Source: Blastocystis sp. subtype 4 (lineage: Eukaryota). Taken from it: a stretch of 38,001 nucleotides of DNA. Positions 19,755-28,328 of the stretch are shown here, one piece after another; the stretch's first letter is position 1, and every line of letters begins with the position of its first letter. A program made the translations under genes and the position numbers. Under the pieces are notes generated by a model, which worked only from the letters and a program-made list of their open reading frames with translations, was not told the DNA's origin and did no database searches. The stretch covers positions 1 through 38,001 of the forward strand of contig NW_014569476.1 in assembly GCF_000743755.1 (NCBI RefSeq), in the 5' to 3' direction.

Positions 19755-22291
19755 TCAACTTGGATTTTCTACTGTACTTCCCGCCTTTGTGCTATTTCCC
19801 GCAGCAACCTCATCGGTTACTGAATCTACTCTTAAGACAAATACAAAAACAAACTCTTTCGAGCGAATGAAGGTACAAAAGGTTTCGCATTTGGATTCAC
19901 ACGCGTCTTTGACGTTGCAGTGGAAGGCTTCTGAGTTGGCATTTGCATAGGAGTACGTCCAGGAACAGGCATTTGAATCTGCATCGGAACTTGCATTGGA
20001 ACGGGCATTTGCATTGGAACTGGCATCTGCATCGGAACTGACATATCCATTTGAACTCCTTGTTGCATCGGGACAGACATTTGCATAGGCATTGGCATTT
20101 GAACTCCTTGTTGCATTGGAACGGACATTTGCATAGGCATTGACATTTGAACTCCTTGCTGCATTGGTACTCCTTGTTGAAGATTCATAGGAATTTGCAT
20201 CATTCCCATTGTCATGGGTCGAGGATGCTGAGCCACCATTTCTGGTTGATCTTGGGCCTGACGAGTACGAGAATTTTGGGTTCTACGTGAGGACTGCTTC
20301 TGCACGCGATCAGTTGACTGATGCGATCGTGCCAGTTGACGACCCATTGACGACTGCTCTAGTCCTCGACTCATTTCTCGACTTGGACGATCCTGAGGCA
20401 TACGATCCAGAGAACGATCTGGTTGCATACGATCCAATGGATGATCCTGAGGCATACGATCTAGAGAACGGTTCTGAGGCATACGATCCAAAGGATGATC
20501 TTGGGGCATACGATCTAGAGAACGATCCGGCATCATGCGATCCAAAGAACGATTGGATTGGACTCGATTCATAGGATGGTCTGATGGAATACGATCCAAT
20601 GGGTGATCTGGTTGAACACGATCCATAGAACGACTTGACTGCATACGATCCGAAGGACCACGTTCAAGAGAACGATTCATTCCCATTCGGTCAAATGGTA
20701 TACGATCAATCTGCATTCGATCCATAGTCATTCGATCCATTGGAGATCGTTCCATCGAAACACGTTCCATCATAGCACGATCTATAGGAGAACGGGCCAT
20801 TGATACAGATCCCCCACGTTCCCGAGCTCGTGCCATCATTATTCGCTCATCCATATTCAAAGAACCTCCTTGCTCTCGAGCTCGTGCTATCATCATTCGC
20901 TCATCCATATTCATAGGTCCATCTCGCTGCATCATAACAGGATAATCGCGACGTTCATTCATCATCATTCGACGTTCATTCATCAACATTCGCTCATACT
21001 CAGCACGACGATGAGGCATGGGACCATCCACAGGAACACTCATGAAAGGACGCCCTGTACGCGATACGGTCATCATTCCTCCAGGAGGGATCGACCCTGA
21101 ACGACGATCTTCGAAGGGATTGGGATCATCTACAGAAGATGGAATATACACTTTTGAAGGAAGATAAGGAGGTGGCATACCAAGTTGATCCAAATGAATC
21201 AGAGAATCATAGTCATTCCCATCTCGCATCATTCCTGATTGATGGTAACGGGCACTATGAATCATTCCAATTGATAAATCTGACTTTTGTTTGCGATGGA
21301 GTGCCTGATCACGTAGCATGGATTCGATATCAGCAGCATTAGTCATGGAAGGATCTGGCTGAGGAAGCTGAGGAATAATTACAGAATCATCATCTTGTCG
21401 AATCAATTCTTCAATAGATGACATTCGCTGGGGATGAGAAGGCTTTGACTTCTTTCCGAACTCTCTTGAAAAAGACATGGTAGAATCAAACAAATCATCT
21501 TTCTCTGTAATTGGCATAAGATGAGTTGATTGGTAACGATGATTGTTCTGAATACTATTGTACAGGATATTCATCACAACCATCTTGATGTCCTCAGGTA
21601 TATAAATCTCTTCTCCTTCCTCCATCTTCTTCACTACCTCATGAATCCGTTTCTGATCATCCGAAATCGTATGTGTCGTCTATATCACAAATATTGTTTG
21701 ATTCCTACACTTAGATCCAGTACATTGTCGACTCTGGTATCGGGCATCTCCCACTCTTCAATCTCTTCCTCACTATATGATCACTGATATCTTTGGTCTC
21801 TACGTTTCATCCTTTGCTTGATATTGAGTATGATAACGAAAGTGATGTATTGGAATCAGATCTAAGAAGGGAGTAAACGAAATCTTCTTCATTGTTTCTA
21901 AAAACTCTAAAATTTCTTCAGGCTGATACACATATTTCTTTTGGACTTCTACAGGCTCCAGTACCTCGCTAGATTCAACAATGGCGGGACCAACAAATTC
22001 CGGCTGTTCTGAATGTGGCGACGGAAGTTGTTGTCCTAGATTCAATAACACCGCTCTAAATCTACCTGACAGAAGCAACTCGGAGATAGCCTCTTCTTTC
22101 TCTACATTTCCATCTTCTTCTTGATCAGGAACAGTTGCAGAGGAGAAAATCAAATCCATTGCATTCTCATCCACGTTCTTCTCTATGGAGGAAGAACCAG
22201 AAGAGTTTGAATTATCGTCATCGCTTATCTTCGGTGAAATACATAACTCAGCAGTAATATCTTGCTCTTGGCCATTCTCGCTGCCTGCCAC
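19755..22291 (-). CDS. Low-complexity Met/Arg/Gln/Pro-rich protein with C-terminal PAM2 motif (5' end unresolved, possibly ATG 22618)
   Basis: ORFs 21800-22291 and 19832-21634 join in frame through two ~30-nt introns; KTRVNPNAKPFVP fits PAM2; a likely final 29-nt intron gives ...STVENPS* at 19755-19757. Confidence 0.68.
19960..20190 (-). repeat. Coding MQ/P-rich repeats (VPMQQGVQM, MPVPMQ)
   Basis: Recurrent catttgcataggc / ttgcattggaac units seen directly. Confidence 0.8.
20388..20650 (-). repeat. Coding 27-nt tandem repeat (DRMPQDHPL / DRMPQNRSL)
   Basis: gcatacgatc recurs with 27-nt period; the translation shows 9-aa units. Confidence 0.88.
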
Positions 22292-22661
22292 TTCCTAGGT
22301 ATTACATCGATCGTATCAACTTCAAACAGTGTTACTACCTTCTTCCCTATAAAATGAACGATCAAAAGAAAGAACAAACTTCATTACCTCAGCAACAGGT
22401 AGAGAATGCAGATTATCAGGATCTAGACAATCACTTGAGATTCGCAATTCGTGTACAATCACTTTTCACCTCTTTTGCTACAGCCTGTACCGAATCGCTC
22501 CTATTTGCTCAAGCGATGGTCTATACCTTCCTACATTGAGATCAAATTATCTGGAGGATCACCACAGAGTCCGAATCGGTTTGTGTGGAAGTGAAGGCGA
22601 ATTCACGGTTATTTCCATTAATTCACAGAAACGATTCCAACAAACAGAACAATACTCAAGT

Positions 22662-24112
22662 TCATTTCGTTAGTCCAAATAGACCGCTGCTCTTCTGAAG
22701 TACTTCTGAGGAGATACAACAGTTTATCATCTTTCTCTATCACTCAATCAGTCCAATGAAAACAACATCTGTTACCCGAATATGATTCGTTAGCCAAGCA
22801 ATGCAATAATCCTGCAGTTCTTTGCTCAAGACAGTTTCATCCTTCACTCCAACAGCTTGTCGCATTTCATTCAACTTCTTTAAGAAATCCTAATGATGAC
22901 CATGTTGTTTATCTTATACATCGTGCTGCTTCTTATGAATCTCAAACTGAGGGTAATTCGTAAATGTTAAGGAAAGGAGGAGTCAACAAGGAAAGGATAT
23001 GTATTGTTCATAAATAGTGCTTCTTCTTCCGTAAAATGAATCCAAGCGTAATCATGAAGAGCATCAATCACATCACTAACACAAATATGAACTTGATTAC
23101 CTGTATTCACATGAATAATCACCTGTAGTTAACGATTCTCCATTATACTATTCAAGGATATATTCACAATTGTTACTAGCCATTGATGTTGACGATCAAT
23201 GGGCAAATAACCAGTAGATAAGATACCATCACTCCATTCGATGTATGGTTGATTCAAATGAAGCATAGTTTCTCGCAGAGAGAAACTGCCAAACTCGTTG
23301 TGAGTTACTATTCATCAATTCATCTTATATCCATACAATTCAAATCAATGAGTGTTTTAAGAGCCTTTGAGAGATAATCAACCCATGATCGACATGTACG
23401 AACAAAAGACTCTCTACAGTCACAGAAGAAAGAAAAAAGTACCCAAGACAATCAGAAAGGACAAGCAGCAAAACTGTACCAATATCGGCATACAAATAGG
23501 CATCAATACCATACTTACGATTTAAATCCTTCATAATCGTAATAAAAGTACTCTCAACTTGCTATCCATTACCAATAAACCACAACACTACTCCCATAGA
23601 AGAACATGAATAAAGGGAATCACATGGACCAGTGACAATGTCATTGAAAAAGGTCTAGAACTCGGTTCCAATCCTTTTGTCTACTTTTGCGAAATCGGTT
23701 TTGAGAATGTCATTCGCTCGTAAAAAACCTGAAGAGGATGTAGATATATTTAAATTCTTCTACCAGGAATAAAAGGAGACCACAAACTACCCGGATGAAA
23801 GACGGTGACATGATAAACAGCCGGTGGAATAATTGACGGAACATAAAATCCAAGGGAGTCGATGAAGGGTCAAATCTAAAGCTAATTCCACCAACAAATG
23901 CTGACTTCTGAATCCGCCGACTTACCTCCAAATTGGCATCTGAGAACGATGCAACTGTTTCATGGCAGTCACGGATGGTAACTAGTGTCACATCAAAGTG
24001 ACTGTTGTACCTACAACATCAGCATTCGAATTGGGCCAGATTACCAAGGAGGAAACACGAACCCCTTCCGATTCACGTTAAACCCAGTTGGAACAGCTAA
24101 CTGTTGACCCAT
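22662..24112 (-). CDS. Globin-like domain fused to hemerythrin (~365 aa, 11 introns)
   Basis: Removing 11 introns of 29-41 nt leaves 1098 nt with no internal stop. Hemerythrin motifs: EWSD..STG..IDRQH, HFTEEE, YPQFEIHKKQH, WLTNHIRVTD. The N-terminal half has the globin pattern FRQLFHRLFIMSP ... KYGIDAYLYADIGTVLLLVLSDCLGESF....SWVDY. TGTTTGTT at 22639-22646. Hemerythrin call is strong; globin call and fusion are inferred. Confidence 0.8.
22960..23000 (-). other. U12-type (minor spliceosome) AT-AC intron, 41 nt
   Basis: 5' ATATCCTTT, branch TTCCTTAAC, 3' AC; removal restores FMNNT|NYPQFEIHKKQH. Confidence 0.92.
23123..23161 (-). other. Probable U12-type AT-AG intron, 39 nt
   Basis: 5' ATATCCTTG, branch-like TCGTTAAC, 3' CAG; contains an in-frame TAA. 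An alternative in-frame GT donor lies 6 nt upstream (23167). Confidence 0.68.
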
Positions 24113-24462
24113 CTGCAAATTGCAGGGAAAAAAATGAGACTGGTATATCTCTGCAACGAGCAAGAATAGATTAGGCTAACTGCGGATACCTATGTTGTCA
24201 CCTTCTACGGTCAGAAAATGGGAAAAACAAACACAATAAGAAGTGGATAAAAGTGTAATAATGCACGGTTCAAAACAATGAATCCTAGAGTACAACAGAT
24301 TACCTCATCTTAGTGTTCTGGTAGAATGAAAAGATACCCCATCCTCAACCCAAGAAGTGAAGCAAAAGAAAAAACAAAATGAAAGGCGGAAACATGTGTC
24401 TCTGAGACCACCTACGTTCAGTAATCCTGATTTATCATGACTCCAATAACGTATCCACAAGA

Positions 24463-26488: not shown

Positions 26489-27895
26489 TCACTGAACAAA
26501 CTCCTCATTGGTAGTCGGCACAGTCTTGATATCCACTTCACTTCGTTTGGCATCAGCTAAATTGACAGGTTCTGCATCCGAAATGCATCCACGGTTAACA
26601 GCATCTGCATCTTCATTTGAGACTGCAGTTACCTTCTTATCGTCAACCACGGGAAGTTCAGTCTTGGGAAGGACAGGAGCCTTATGAATGTGTCCAAACA
26701 CAATAAACGAAAGATGGCTCAATGTAGCGAGACCAATATTCAACCACAATTCGGCAGCATACATGGATGATGAAGCAACATTCTCTCCTTCCTTGACAAA
26801 AAGAGATGCTAACAAATAGCAAATACAGCCTCCCATGTTTTGGAACAAACGGAATACGCTATTGGCCGTCTCTTGGTCAGTGAATTTCTCACCAACAACA
26901 GCTGGAATCAGAGTCTGGTAAGCACTATCGGAGAGAGCCAAAAGAATAAACGAAATATAATACAAGAAATTCTGAGTGAAGTTGGCATACCAAACGGTGA
27001 TCATACCTGCTGCTTGCGTCAACGAAGCCACATTCATTAAAAACATTTGACCAAACTTATCCATAAGAGAACCAAGAGACGTTGAAATGACAGTTTCGAC
27101 AAACGAATAGACAGCCATTAGCAAACCCAGAGAACTCTGGTCATGAAGCTGACGAGTAAGCATACAGCCCAGGTAGGAGTACTGGAACCCCAAGTAGAAC
27201 ATAGGCATCAACAGCCAGATCATATCATGAGAAACGGTCATCTTCACCACACGCTTCATCAGTACCATTGTTGGAGTGGAAGAGAGAGGAGGACGTGTTC
27301 CTTCAGATGGAGATGGCTTGAGAAGAAACATGGGAACTGCACCGATTAGGGAGATGCAACCCAAGAATATAAACATAATAGAAGCAGCTCCATGCCATCC
27401 TTCAACGTTAGAAGAGTCATCCAGACCAATAAATCGCAAAATAAAGAAAACGGCAAGATTACCGAGAATGGTTCCACTCATATAAACACCCCAAAAGATA
27501 CCACTCTTTACACCTTTATCATGTTCATTCATGTTGGCAGACAAATAGACACCTTCTGCTGCCCACAACACAGCCGCCACAATACCATGTAGGAAACTCC
27601 ACACATAACCGACTGACGGGATGAAGTAGACATAAGCGAACATATACAGACCATACTCGATACACAACCACGCGAGACACTGTCGTTCATTCTTGAACCA
27701 CTTCAGAATTGGAGGGATAATGAAGCAAGAGAATGCTGAGGATAGCATAATAAGTGCCATACACATTGAACCAGTGGTCCCAAAAATCGGTACAATGAAA
27801 TTCATAGCCACTTTGATTCCAAGCAACGTCAGGGACATTGCAAAACCAAGAGTATACACATTAGACATCGTAGGATCATTTGACTTTCTTGTCAT
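26489..27895 (-). CDS. UNC-93-like MFS membrane protein
   Basis: 468-aa uninterrupted multi-TM ORF with AVLWAAEGVYLS...SGIFWG...GTILGNL and ANSVFRLFQ; TGTTTGTT downstream. Confidence 0.85.
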   Translation of the reverse strand: MTRKSNDPTMSNVYTLGFAMSLTLLGIKVAMNFIVPIFGTTGSMCMALIMLSSAFSCFIIPPILKWFKNERQCLAWLCIEYGLYMFAYVYFIPSVGYVWSFLHGIVAAVLWAAEGVYLSANMNEHDKGVKSGIFWGVYMSGTILGNLAVFFILRFIGLDDSSNVEGWHGAASIMFIFLGCISLIGAVPMFLLKPSPSEGTRPPLSSTPTMVLMKRVVKMTVSHDMIWLLMPMFYLGFQYSYLGCMLTRQLHDQSSLGLLMAVYSFVETVISTSLGSLMDKFGQMFLMNVASLTQAAGMITVWYANFTQNFLYYISFILLALSDSAYQTLIPAVVGEKFTDQETANSVFRLFQNMGGCICYLLASLFVKEGENVASSSMYAAELWLNIGLATLSHLSFIVFGHIHKAPVLPKTELPVVDDKKVTAVSNEDADAVNRGCISDAEPVNLADAKRSEVDIKTVPTTNEEFVQ

Positions 27896-28328
27896 TCTGA
27901 TAATTAATGGGTATCCTATAGAAACGAGGAAACCGTGGAACTGATCTGTCTTCGCCCCCTTTATCTACTAAGAACAAATAAAACCAGCAACAATAGAGAG
28001 AAAATAGTAGTTATATGAGAGACCTCCCATTTGTTTCGTTACTCAATCGGATCATGAGAATGATAGATCCAAATAACCACATTCATTTATAAGATGATTC
28101 CTCTCACAATATGCAACCCCAATTCGGTAGTCTATGATCAATGGAAATCTTGAATCCAATTGGTTTATAAGTATTTTCAAAGCGAATTCTATGTTTGCAA
28201 TAGAACTGACTATATCCTTCTCGTGAATACTGCAAATGGTAAAGAAAACAACTTACAAAACATCTAAACAGAGCCAGATAATCGATTTTACGCAAATATC
28301 GCATATCTTTCTCGTTCTGTAGATTCAA

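Follow-up and report, generated by a model that had tools for sequence, protein, structure and literature searches.

Does a gene in the 38,001-nt window, the whole stretch of Blastocystis DNA analysed here, encode a single chain in which a globin-like domain is joined to a hemerythrin, and what could such a pairing serve in an organism that meets and consumes O2 and must cope with oxygen swings (PMC6204527)? The initial annotation had read the minus strand between 24112 and 22662 as such a fusion, with a candidate myristoylation start and two O2-binding folds that could sense or buffer O2 or NO.

Gene structure, transcripts and orthologues

The fused two-domain gene is real and expressed, with the following features.

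22662..24112 (-): whole gene, 365 aa, 12 exons, globin-like domain plus hemerythrin (X1 contig, P0022)
24045..24112 (-): exon 1, aa 1-23, start MGQQLA, Gly2 a candidate myristoylation site
24044-24011 (-): intron 1, spliced out in X1 contig
23906..24010 (-): exon 2, aa 23-58, predicted helix A region
23905-23876 (-): intron 2, spliced out in X1 contig
23791..23875 (-): exon 3, aa 58-86, predicted helices B-C, FMFRQLFHRLFIMSP
23790-23760 (-): intron 3, spliced out in X1 contig
23685..23759 (-): exon 4, aa 87-111
23684-23655 (-): intron 4, spliced out in X1 contig
23592..23654 (-): exon 5, aa 112-132, predicted helix E, without distal His
23591-23562 (-): intron 5, spliced out in X1 contig
23443..23561 (-): exon 6, aa 133-172, predicted helices F and G
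23442-23414 (-): intron 6, spliced out in X1 contig
23337..23413 (-): exon 7, aa 172-198, predicted helix H
23336-23308 (-): linker intron, 29 nt, GT-AG, in-frame domain join (X1 contig; same position in relatives)
23162..23307 (-): exon 8, aa 198-246, conserved linker and hemerythrin start, ligand H238
23161-23123 (-): U12-type intron, 39 nt, AT..AG, codon 247 (X1 contig)
23001..23122 (-): exon 9, aa 247-287, ligands H275 and E279
23000-22960 (-): U12-type intron, 41 nt, AT..AC, ATATCCTT donor, TCCTTAAC branch site (X1 contig)
22920..22959 (-): exon 10, aa 287-300, ligands H295 and H299
22919-22890 (-): intron 10, spliced out in X1 contig
22767..22889 (-): exon 11, aa 301-341, ligands H336 and D341
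22766-22737 (-): intron 11, spliced out in X1 contig
22662..22736 (-): exon 12, aa 342-365 and TGA stop (22662-22664)
22639..22646 (-): TGTTTGTT motif, 15 bases 3' of the stop (sequence)

A single X1 contig of 2886 letters (depth 134.6), recovered at 80% likeness and missed at 88%, skips all 11 introns with 0 other letters; the exact removal of the introns shows it to be cDNA, X1 otherwise being only guessed to be RNA. The 12 exons join into a frame of 365 aa without an internal stop, identical to the transcript-derived protein P0022 (Logan/ENA), and the ATG at 24112, the stop and the exon count are all as first claimed. The 29-nt intron that had been placed between the two halves is likewise removed in the X1 contig, and a diverged X8 contig, which reaches from 23807 in the globin part to 22826 in the hemerythrin part, holds 721 letters between these points, equal to the number predicted for this interval by the spliced 12-exon model. 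Transcripts ending near 23320, with a separate start before 23266, were looked for and none was found. The minus strand from 24233 to 22646 is free of TGTTTGTT, which we take to be the Blastocystis polyadenylation motif and whose absence between the halves had been pointed out.

Rejected gene models comprise a GT-AG-only version (367 aa, 727 letters), which contradicts the X1 and X8 cDNA contigs, and an additional coding exon upstream that would end at the AG preceding the ATG, a splice not seen in X1 and an AG missing in the L008-L014 lineages (see below). Part of the window is present in six of the eight listed runs; in X2, two metatranscriptome contigs (23656-23827 and 23831-24098) that cover the gene's 5' half are unspliced, and no contig was found when run X7 was compared with the gene. 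The X1 contig itself continues unspliced beyond 24600 and does not define the 5' end of the transcript. Between 24113 and 24600 it runs towards a divergent MFS-like transporter gene, crossing a minus-strand TGTTTGTT at 24233, through either overlapping 5' regions or a merged contig. The downstream neighbour (19832-22294, minus strand) is a spliced, syntenic gene with a long Met/Arg/Asp/Gln-rich repetitive frame that ends in NPNAKPFVP, presumably a PAM2-like motif, and at 26489-27964, on the same strand, lies an intronless open frame of 491 codons for a multi-pass membrane protein, unusual in an intron-dense genome.

A metagenome scan yielded 16 related loci among 333 pattern matches, and 10 of the 16 were spliced; L006, L008 and L014 are truncated where their contigs end, L008 being moreover mis-spliced at one site, while L015 and L016 hold only part of the gene. 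All 11 intron positions are present in L005, L009, L012 and L013, while L001 has all 11 when an AT..AT end is allowed, its spliced product being exactly the annotated protein P0025. The genes on either side are syntenic in the loci compared, so that the related Blastocystis loci are orthologues; the search of other Blastocystis that the initial annotation had proposed returns the fusion in these orthologues, down to the position of the linker intron. Named homologues are Blastocystis proteins of 365-366 aa, 67-75% identical, and in public records the protein has no other label than 'hypothetical' or 'hemerythrin-like'.

More distant fragments (P0037, P0038, P0045 and P0061; 56-60% identical) have the same linker and hemerythrin start, no intron at codon 247 and an apparently retained minor intron near codon 287; they are likely paralogues, or orthologues of distant lineages. 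On separate contigs, L015:2508-2923 and L016:1300-1655 hold a copy (98-100%) of the gene that starts at about codon 113, with the same breakpoint and an in-frame join to unrelated upstream sequence, and two frames close to the L015 copy look EF-1alpha-like and leucine-rich-repeat-like by eye. These copies could represent a partial duplicate, a chimeric gene or a shared assembly artefact.

Two introns within the hemerythrin do not have GT-AG ends, a point that the initial annotation did not raise. Both (23161-23123 and 23000-22960) carry the ATATCCTT donor and, close to the 3' end, a motif resembling a branch site, and they are of the minor-spliceosome type. Their lengths, 39 and 41 nt, agree with the median of 39 nt for Blastocystis minor introns stated in excerpts of PMC10639083, and excerpts of PMC5608401 count 346 such introns in 319 genes. 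The ATATCC donor at codon 247 is found in 14 of the 16 loci, the other two not extending to this codon, and the 3' end of the intron is AG in the window type (L012-L014), AC in L008-L011 and AT in L001-L004, with position and donor constant (coordinates L001:2269, L008:1914 and L012:3455). A single intron with three 3' ends across lineages represents a small natural test of the tolerance of the minor spliceosome. The annotation P0003 reads through both the codon-247 intron and the AT-AC intron. In P0023 the last intron (22737-22766, minus strand) is retained and the upstream introns are removed, the protein ending just past ligand D341, possibly a case of intron retention that keeps all seven ligands.

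The hemerythrin and globin-like domains

22710..23251 (-): hemerythrin domain, aa 217-350 (profiles, PDB sequence matches, predicted fold)
23300..23997 (-): globin-like domain, aa 28-200, 3/3 fold by prediction, without a conserved His
23520..23522 (-): codon 146 (Asn), aligned to the neuroglobin proximal heme His; Asn or Tyr in relatives

Four lineages were compared, namely the window, P0005, P0025 and L009. Judged from its sequence, the hemerythrin is intact and of the O2 type, and it would be expected to bind two irons and O2. The seven di-iron ligands that had been recognised at the outset (H238, H275, E279, H295, H299, H336 and D341) are all present and invariant in the four lineages, and the H...HxxxE...HxxxH...HxxxxD signature that excerpts of PMC9388753 give for O2-binding hemerythrins is complete within aa 217-350. 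The HMMER search suggested earlier places the domain above cut-off with PF01814 (48.1 bits, cut-off 25.3), as do NF033749 (92.5, cut-off 84) and TIGR02481 (92.8, cut-off 51.75), with scores below cut-off for NF002007, TIGR00058 and NF002522. The best PDB sequence match is the bacteriohemerythrin 4xpx (E 8e-11), and L241, F276, F302, W332, L333 and I337, which are aligned to it and invariant in all four lineages, presumably form the hydrophobic O2 pocket. The model of aa 217-350 superposes on 4xpw with Z 16.7 and rmsd 2.2 over 130 of 131 residues, and the nearest solved folds among the matches listed are DcrH-Hr and the Methylococcus-type bacteriohemerythrin (Z 16-17, rmsd 2.2-2.3).

The N-terminal domain, aa ~28-200, is predicted to fold as a 3/3 globin, with individual lines of evidence that are moderate and that all indicate the same fold. 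The motifs FxxLF..P and YG(I)...G..LL..L...LG, on which the initial proposal of a globin relied, are present in the sequence. The AlphaFold2 model (pLDDT 78.9, pTM 0.77) was built from an alignment of 38 rows, only six of which fall in the globin-like domain, P0070 (see below) being left out because a global alignment misplaced it. A wide structure search listed 23 rows that span aa 20-202, and the title of every one of them names a globin or a globin-like heme protein; aa 28-200 match 8oup with Z 12.1 and rmsd 3.1 over 148 of 150 residues, a Z of ~12 lying below the tool's caution line of ~13 for helical proteins. Absence of a globin fold from residues ~25-200 was thus looked for by AlphaFold2 and structure search, and a globin fold was predicted. 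Foldseek ranks neuroglobins directly behind hemerythrins (best globin E 0.04), with no match for this domain at E <= 0.001; ESM features give a Globin score of 0.88, to be read as a lead, and phmmer against the PDB finds a weak neuroglobin match over F-G-H (E 0.6-0.9). The proposed HMMER check with Pfam Globin PF00042 gave no match at E <= 1 in four proteins, by a procedure whose filters hide weak matches, and none at 0.01 for P0022, P0025 and P0035. A word-based search with the globin region, limited by length and shared words, returned only Blastocystis-type proteins, 4 of 161 candidates.

The initial annotation counted two O2-binding folds in the chain. This stands for the hemerythrin, which has all its ligands, and is not supported for the globin. 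Residue 146, at the position of the proximal His F8 in the neuroglobin alignment, is N, Y, N and Y in the four lineages, none of which has a His in aa 127-149; H27, the sole invariant His before aa 205, lies outside the globin core, and Y149 is invariant in all four. We take the CD1 Phe position to be aa 88/89 and the distal E7 position aa 112/113, by their usual spacing; at these sites the four lineages show N or C followed by L, with no CD1 Phe, and T, K, V or N followed by F, with no distal His or Gln. In heme globins the proximal side is conserved. Here it drifts (invariant residues in the four lineages amount to 3 of 23 in EF-F, 2 of 10 in CD-D, 20 of 31 in B-C and 18 of 23 in G), which suggests that selection acts on other surfaces. 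Since Asn or Tyr replaces the proximal His, the distal His and CD1 Phe are absent and the F helix drifts, a heme site is improbable and the globin domain is most likely heme-free.

Conservation, the N-terminus and a module behind a 7TM domain

Both halves are under purifying selection. The four lineages share 57-82% identity over the globin-like part, against 79-93% over the hemerythrin, and dN/dS, for the one pair that is unsaturated in all regions, is ~0.08 in the globin (0.103/1.26) and 0.04 in the hemerythrin (0.041/1.07). The linker, aa 198-219, has 15 of its 22 residues invariant in the four lineages.

In the proposed MGQQLA start, Gly2 is invariant in all four lineages, as are 16 of the first 27 residues. 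The consensus for N-myristoylation includes Gly2 and a small residue, best Ser or Thr, at position 6, which here is Ala in three lineages and Ser in one. No Cys3 and no conserved basic patch, either of which could act as a second membrane signal, was found in the four lineages. Because position 6 is Ser in only one of four and such a second signal is lacking, any lipid anchor at Gly2 would be weak.

The same pair of domains stands behind a transmembrane domain in P0070, a 656-aa JGI/IMG protein with a single member, which ranked in the top 150 of the 12,328 phmmer hits obtained from 1.84 billion representatives. A domain scan of 44 proteins, chosen mostly for length, reads it as a rhodopsin-family 7tm_1 domain (32.1 bits, cut-off 30.5), ~190 unassigned residues and then a hemerythrin. 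This middle part is, by sequence comparison, homologous to the Blastocystis N-terminal domain, which it matches with 21.8 bits (best of 1000 shuffles, 10.2) in 63 gap-free columns over helices A-C; hhalign of the whole module gives a probability of 98.8 over 298 columns, a large share of which comes from the hemerythrin, and within the globin domain the likeness is clear at the two ends only. P0070 keeps the globin-like domain without the Blastocystis N-terminus, and has Ile at the position aligned to residue 146. Its single-sequence structure model has a pLDDT of 42. Among 201 proteins, no other that is not of Blastocystis type matched the globin-like profile at E < 0.01. A word-based search from P0070, limited by length and shared words, returned P0070 itself, 1 of 436, and the searches found no relatives, so that the 7TM link is that of one sequence. 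Hemerythrin trees (a first of 51 rows, a second of 21 hand-picked rows under a simpler model) are mostly without resolution, and free quick trees do not group P0070 with Blastocystis; a joint clade of their hemerythrins is not rejected (p-AU 0.55). The occurrence of the module behind a 7TM domain lends support to the idea of a sensor.

Proposed function and relation to known systems

The reading that we favour, with a probability of about 0.5, is that of a membrane-associated di-iron sensor of O2 or redox state in which a heme-free pseudo-globin domain hands the signal on to a partner; the chain is likely to be an oxygen sensor whose signalling partner is the globin, rather than a double oxygen carrier. 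In such a mechanism the hemerythrin would hold two irons and react with O2, and the resulting change would travel by way of the conserved linker (aa 198-219) and reach the conserved surfaces of the globin, at B-C and G-H. A myristoyl group on Gly2 would provide weak attachment to the membrane, P0070 using its 7TM domain instead, and the heme-free globin may then hand the signal to a downstream partner located there. Profile scans recognised no output domain in P0022, P0005 or P0025.

It is rather unlikely that the protein acts simply as an O2 buffer or shuttle, its hemerythrin binding, scavenging or delivering O2 (for example, to AOX) and its globin serving as stabiliser or anchor. For a pure buffer, strong conservation of a second domain and of the linker would be superfluous, and P0070 carries the module joined to a 7TM domain, although the chain has no enzymatic output domain, a single-domain bacteriohemerythrin is among the closest structures, hemerythrins are reported in PMC4919030 to shield anaerobes and to provide enzymes with O2, and Blastocystis buffers O2 with AOX (PMC6204527). 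Iron sensing or storage, where metal loading of the hemerythrin rather than O2 would control the state or stability of the protein, is improbable: FBXL5-type iron sensing and metal storage are known for hemerythrin folds (PMC3730353, in excerpt), but here the H-HxxxE-HxxxH-HxxxxD motif of the O2-binding type and the hydrophobic pocket are kept, and bacteriohemerythrin models matched above cut-off whereas no FBXL5 entry occurs among 29 PDB sequence matches. Equally improbable is a lipid-pocket switch, in which the empty globin pocket would hold a fatty acid (perhaps the N-myristoyl group of the protein itself), whose release, set by the redox state of the hemerythrin, would send the protein to a membrane. 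The invariant Gly2 and N-terminal residues, and the fatty acid reported as a ligand of RsbR-type non-heme globins (PMC8717448, in excerpt), would fit this, yet residue 146 is not the fatty-acid-binding Arg of that family, and P0070 keeps the domain without the Blastocystis N-terminus. Given how the globin-like domain varies, the chance is slim that the globin binds heme, be it through a Tyr or another ligand, and works as an O2 or NO sensor next to the di-iron site, as the two-cofactor protein of the initial annotation would require. The predicted fold is closest to heme globins among the matches listed, the B-C motif resembles that of neuroglobin, residue 146 is Tyr in two of four lineages and Y149 is invariant, but residue 146 is Asn in the other two lineages and Ile in P0070, the only invariant His before aa 205 is outside the core, and the F region is among the fastest-changing parts.

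Extending the favoured reading of a di-iron sensor with a heme-free globin partner, we tentatively suggest, as something short of an even chance, that this may be an undescribed eukaryotic O2-sensing module in which a heme-less globin is coupled to a bacterial-type di-iron hemerythrin that took over gas sensing. As a lipid-anchored subunit in Blastocystis and as the cytosolic tail of a rhodopsin-type receptor in the P0070 lineage, it would link O2 to membrane signalling, its globin representing a new non-heme family derived from animal-type heme globins. Blastocystis is among the commonest gut eukaryotes, and the gene offers a concrete, expressed and conserved candidate for an oxygen sensor, none having been found described for this organism in the literature. 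A further suggestion of the pairing is that a globin without its heme can survive as a scaffold for signalling, next to an O2-binding fold of another kind.

The pairing of globin and hemerythrin apparently represents an undescribed combination of known folds. In agreement with the initial claim of novelty, no description of a Blastocystis hemerythrin, or of a globin-hemerythrin fusion, was found in the literature outside subscription journals, and 'hemerythrin' or 'hemery' and 'globin' have 0 occurrences in the main text of PMC5608401 and PMC6204527. Of 135 eukaryotic genomes in a 2016 survey (PMC4919030), only 4 had hemerythrins of the O2 type; the survey records 56 hemerythrin architectures, 56.9% with unassigned extensions.

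Bacteriohemerythrin (4xpx, NF033749) is a single-domain protein, whereas the Blastocystis chain has two domains and a conserved linker. Chimeric hemerythrins act as O2 or redox sensors in bacteria, and an autoxidation half-life of 22 min is given for DcrH (both in excerpts of PMC9388753). DcrH of Desulfovibrio vulgaris (2avk, 3waq) likewise has a C-terminal O2-type hemerythrin with full ligands, close in fold to that described here (Z 16.3-17.3, rmsd 2.3). In contrast to DcrH and the other chimeric bacterial sensors (Bhr-DGC, Bhr-HD-GYP), the Blastocystis gene is eukaryotic, has 11 introns and no recognised catalytic output, and its hemerythrin is partnered by a globin-like domain rather than by an MCP, GGDEF, HD-GYP or ATPase domain.

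With neuroglobin, cytoglobin and invertebrate nerve globins (4mpm, 8oup) the N-terminal domain has in common a predicted 3/3 fold over 144-149 of ~150 residues; it differs from them in the absence of proximal and distal His and of the CD1 Phe, in a longer CD region and in its fusion to a hemerythrin. A globin fold without heme His, often as a signalling module, is known from the RsbR N-terminal domain, phycocyanin and photoglobin (excerpts of PMC8717448 and PMC7475203), families that are prokaryotic in their signalling members, while the Blastocystis gene is eukaryotic. None of them occurs among the 50 fold matches listed, where the Blastocystis domain is nearer to animal-type heme globins. 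The Arg reported at the proximal site of RsbR-type non-heme globins (PMC8717448, in excerpt) is not found at residue 146, which is Asn or Tyr, and residue 147 is R, K, S and K in the four lineages.

As for membrane attachment, excerpts of PMC7475203 describe Globin X as myristoylated at Gly2 and palmitoylated at Cys3. Neither Globin X nor GLB-33 has a hemerythrin, and the Blastocystis protein is without Cys3. Nematode GLB-33 combines a 7TM domain with a globin and binds heme, and Globin X is a hexacoordinate heme protein. In both, by a lipid in Globin X and by a 7TM domain in GLB-33, a globin fold is held at the membrane, as is proposed here for the Blastocystis protein and for P0070.
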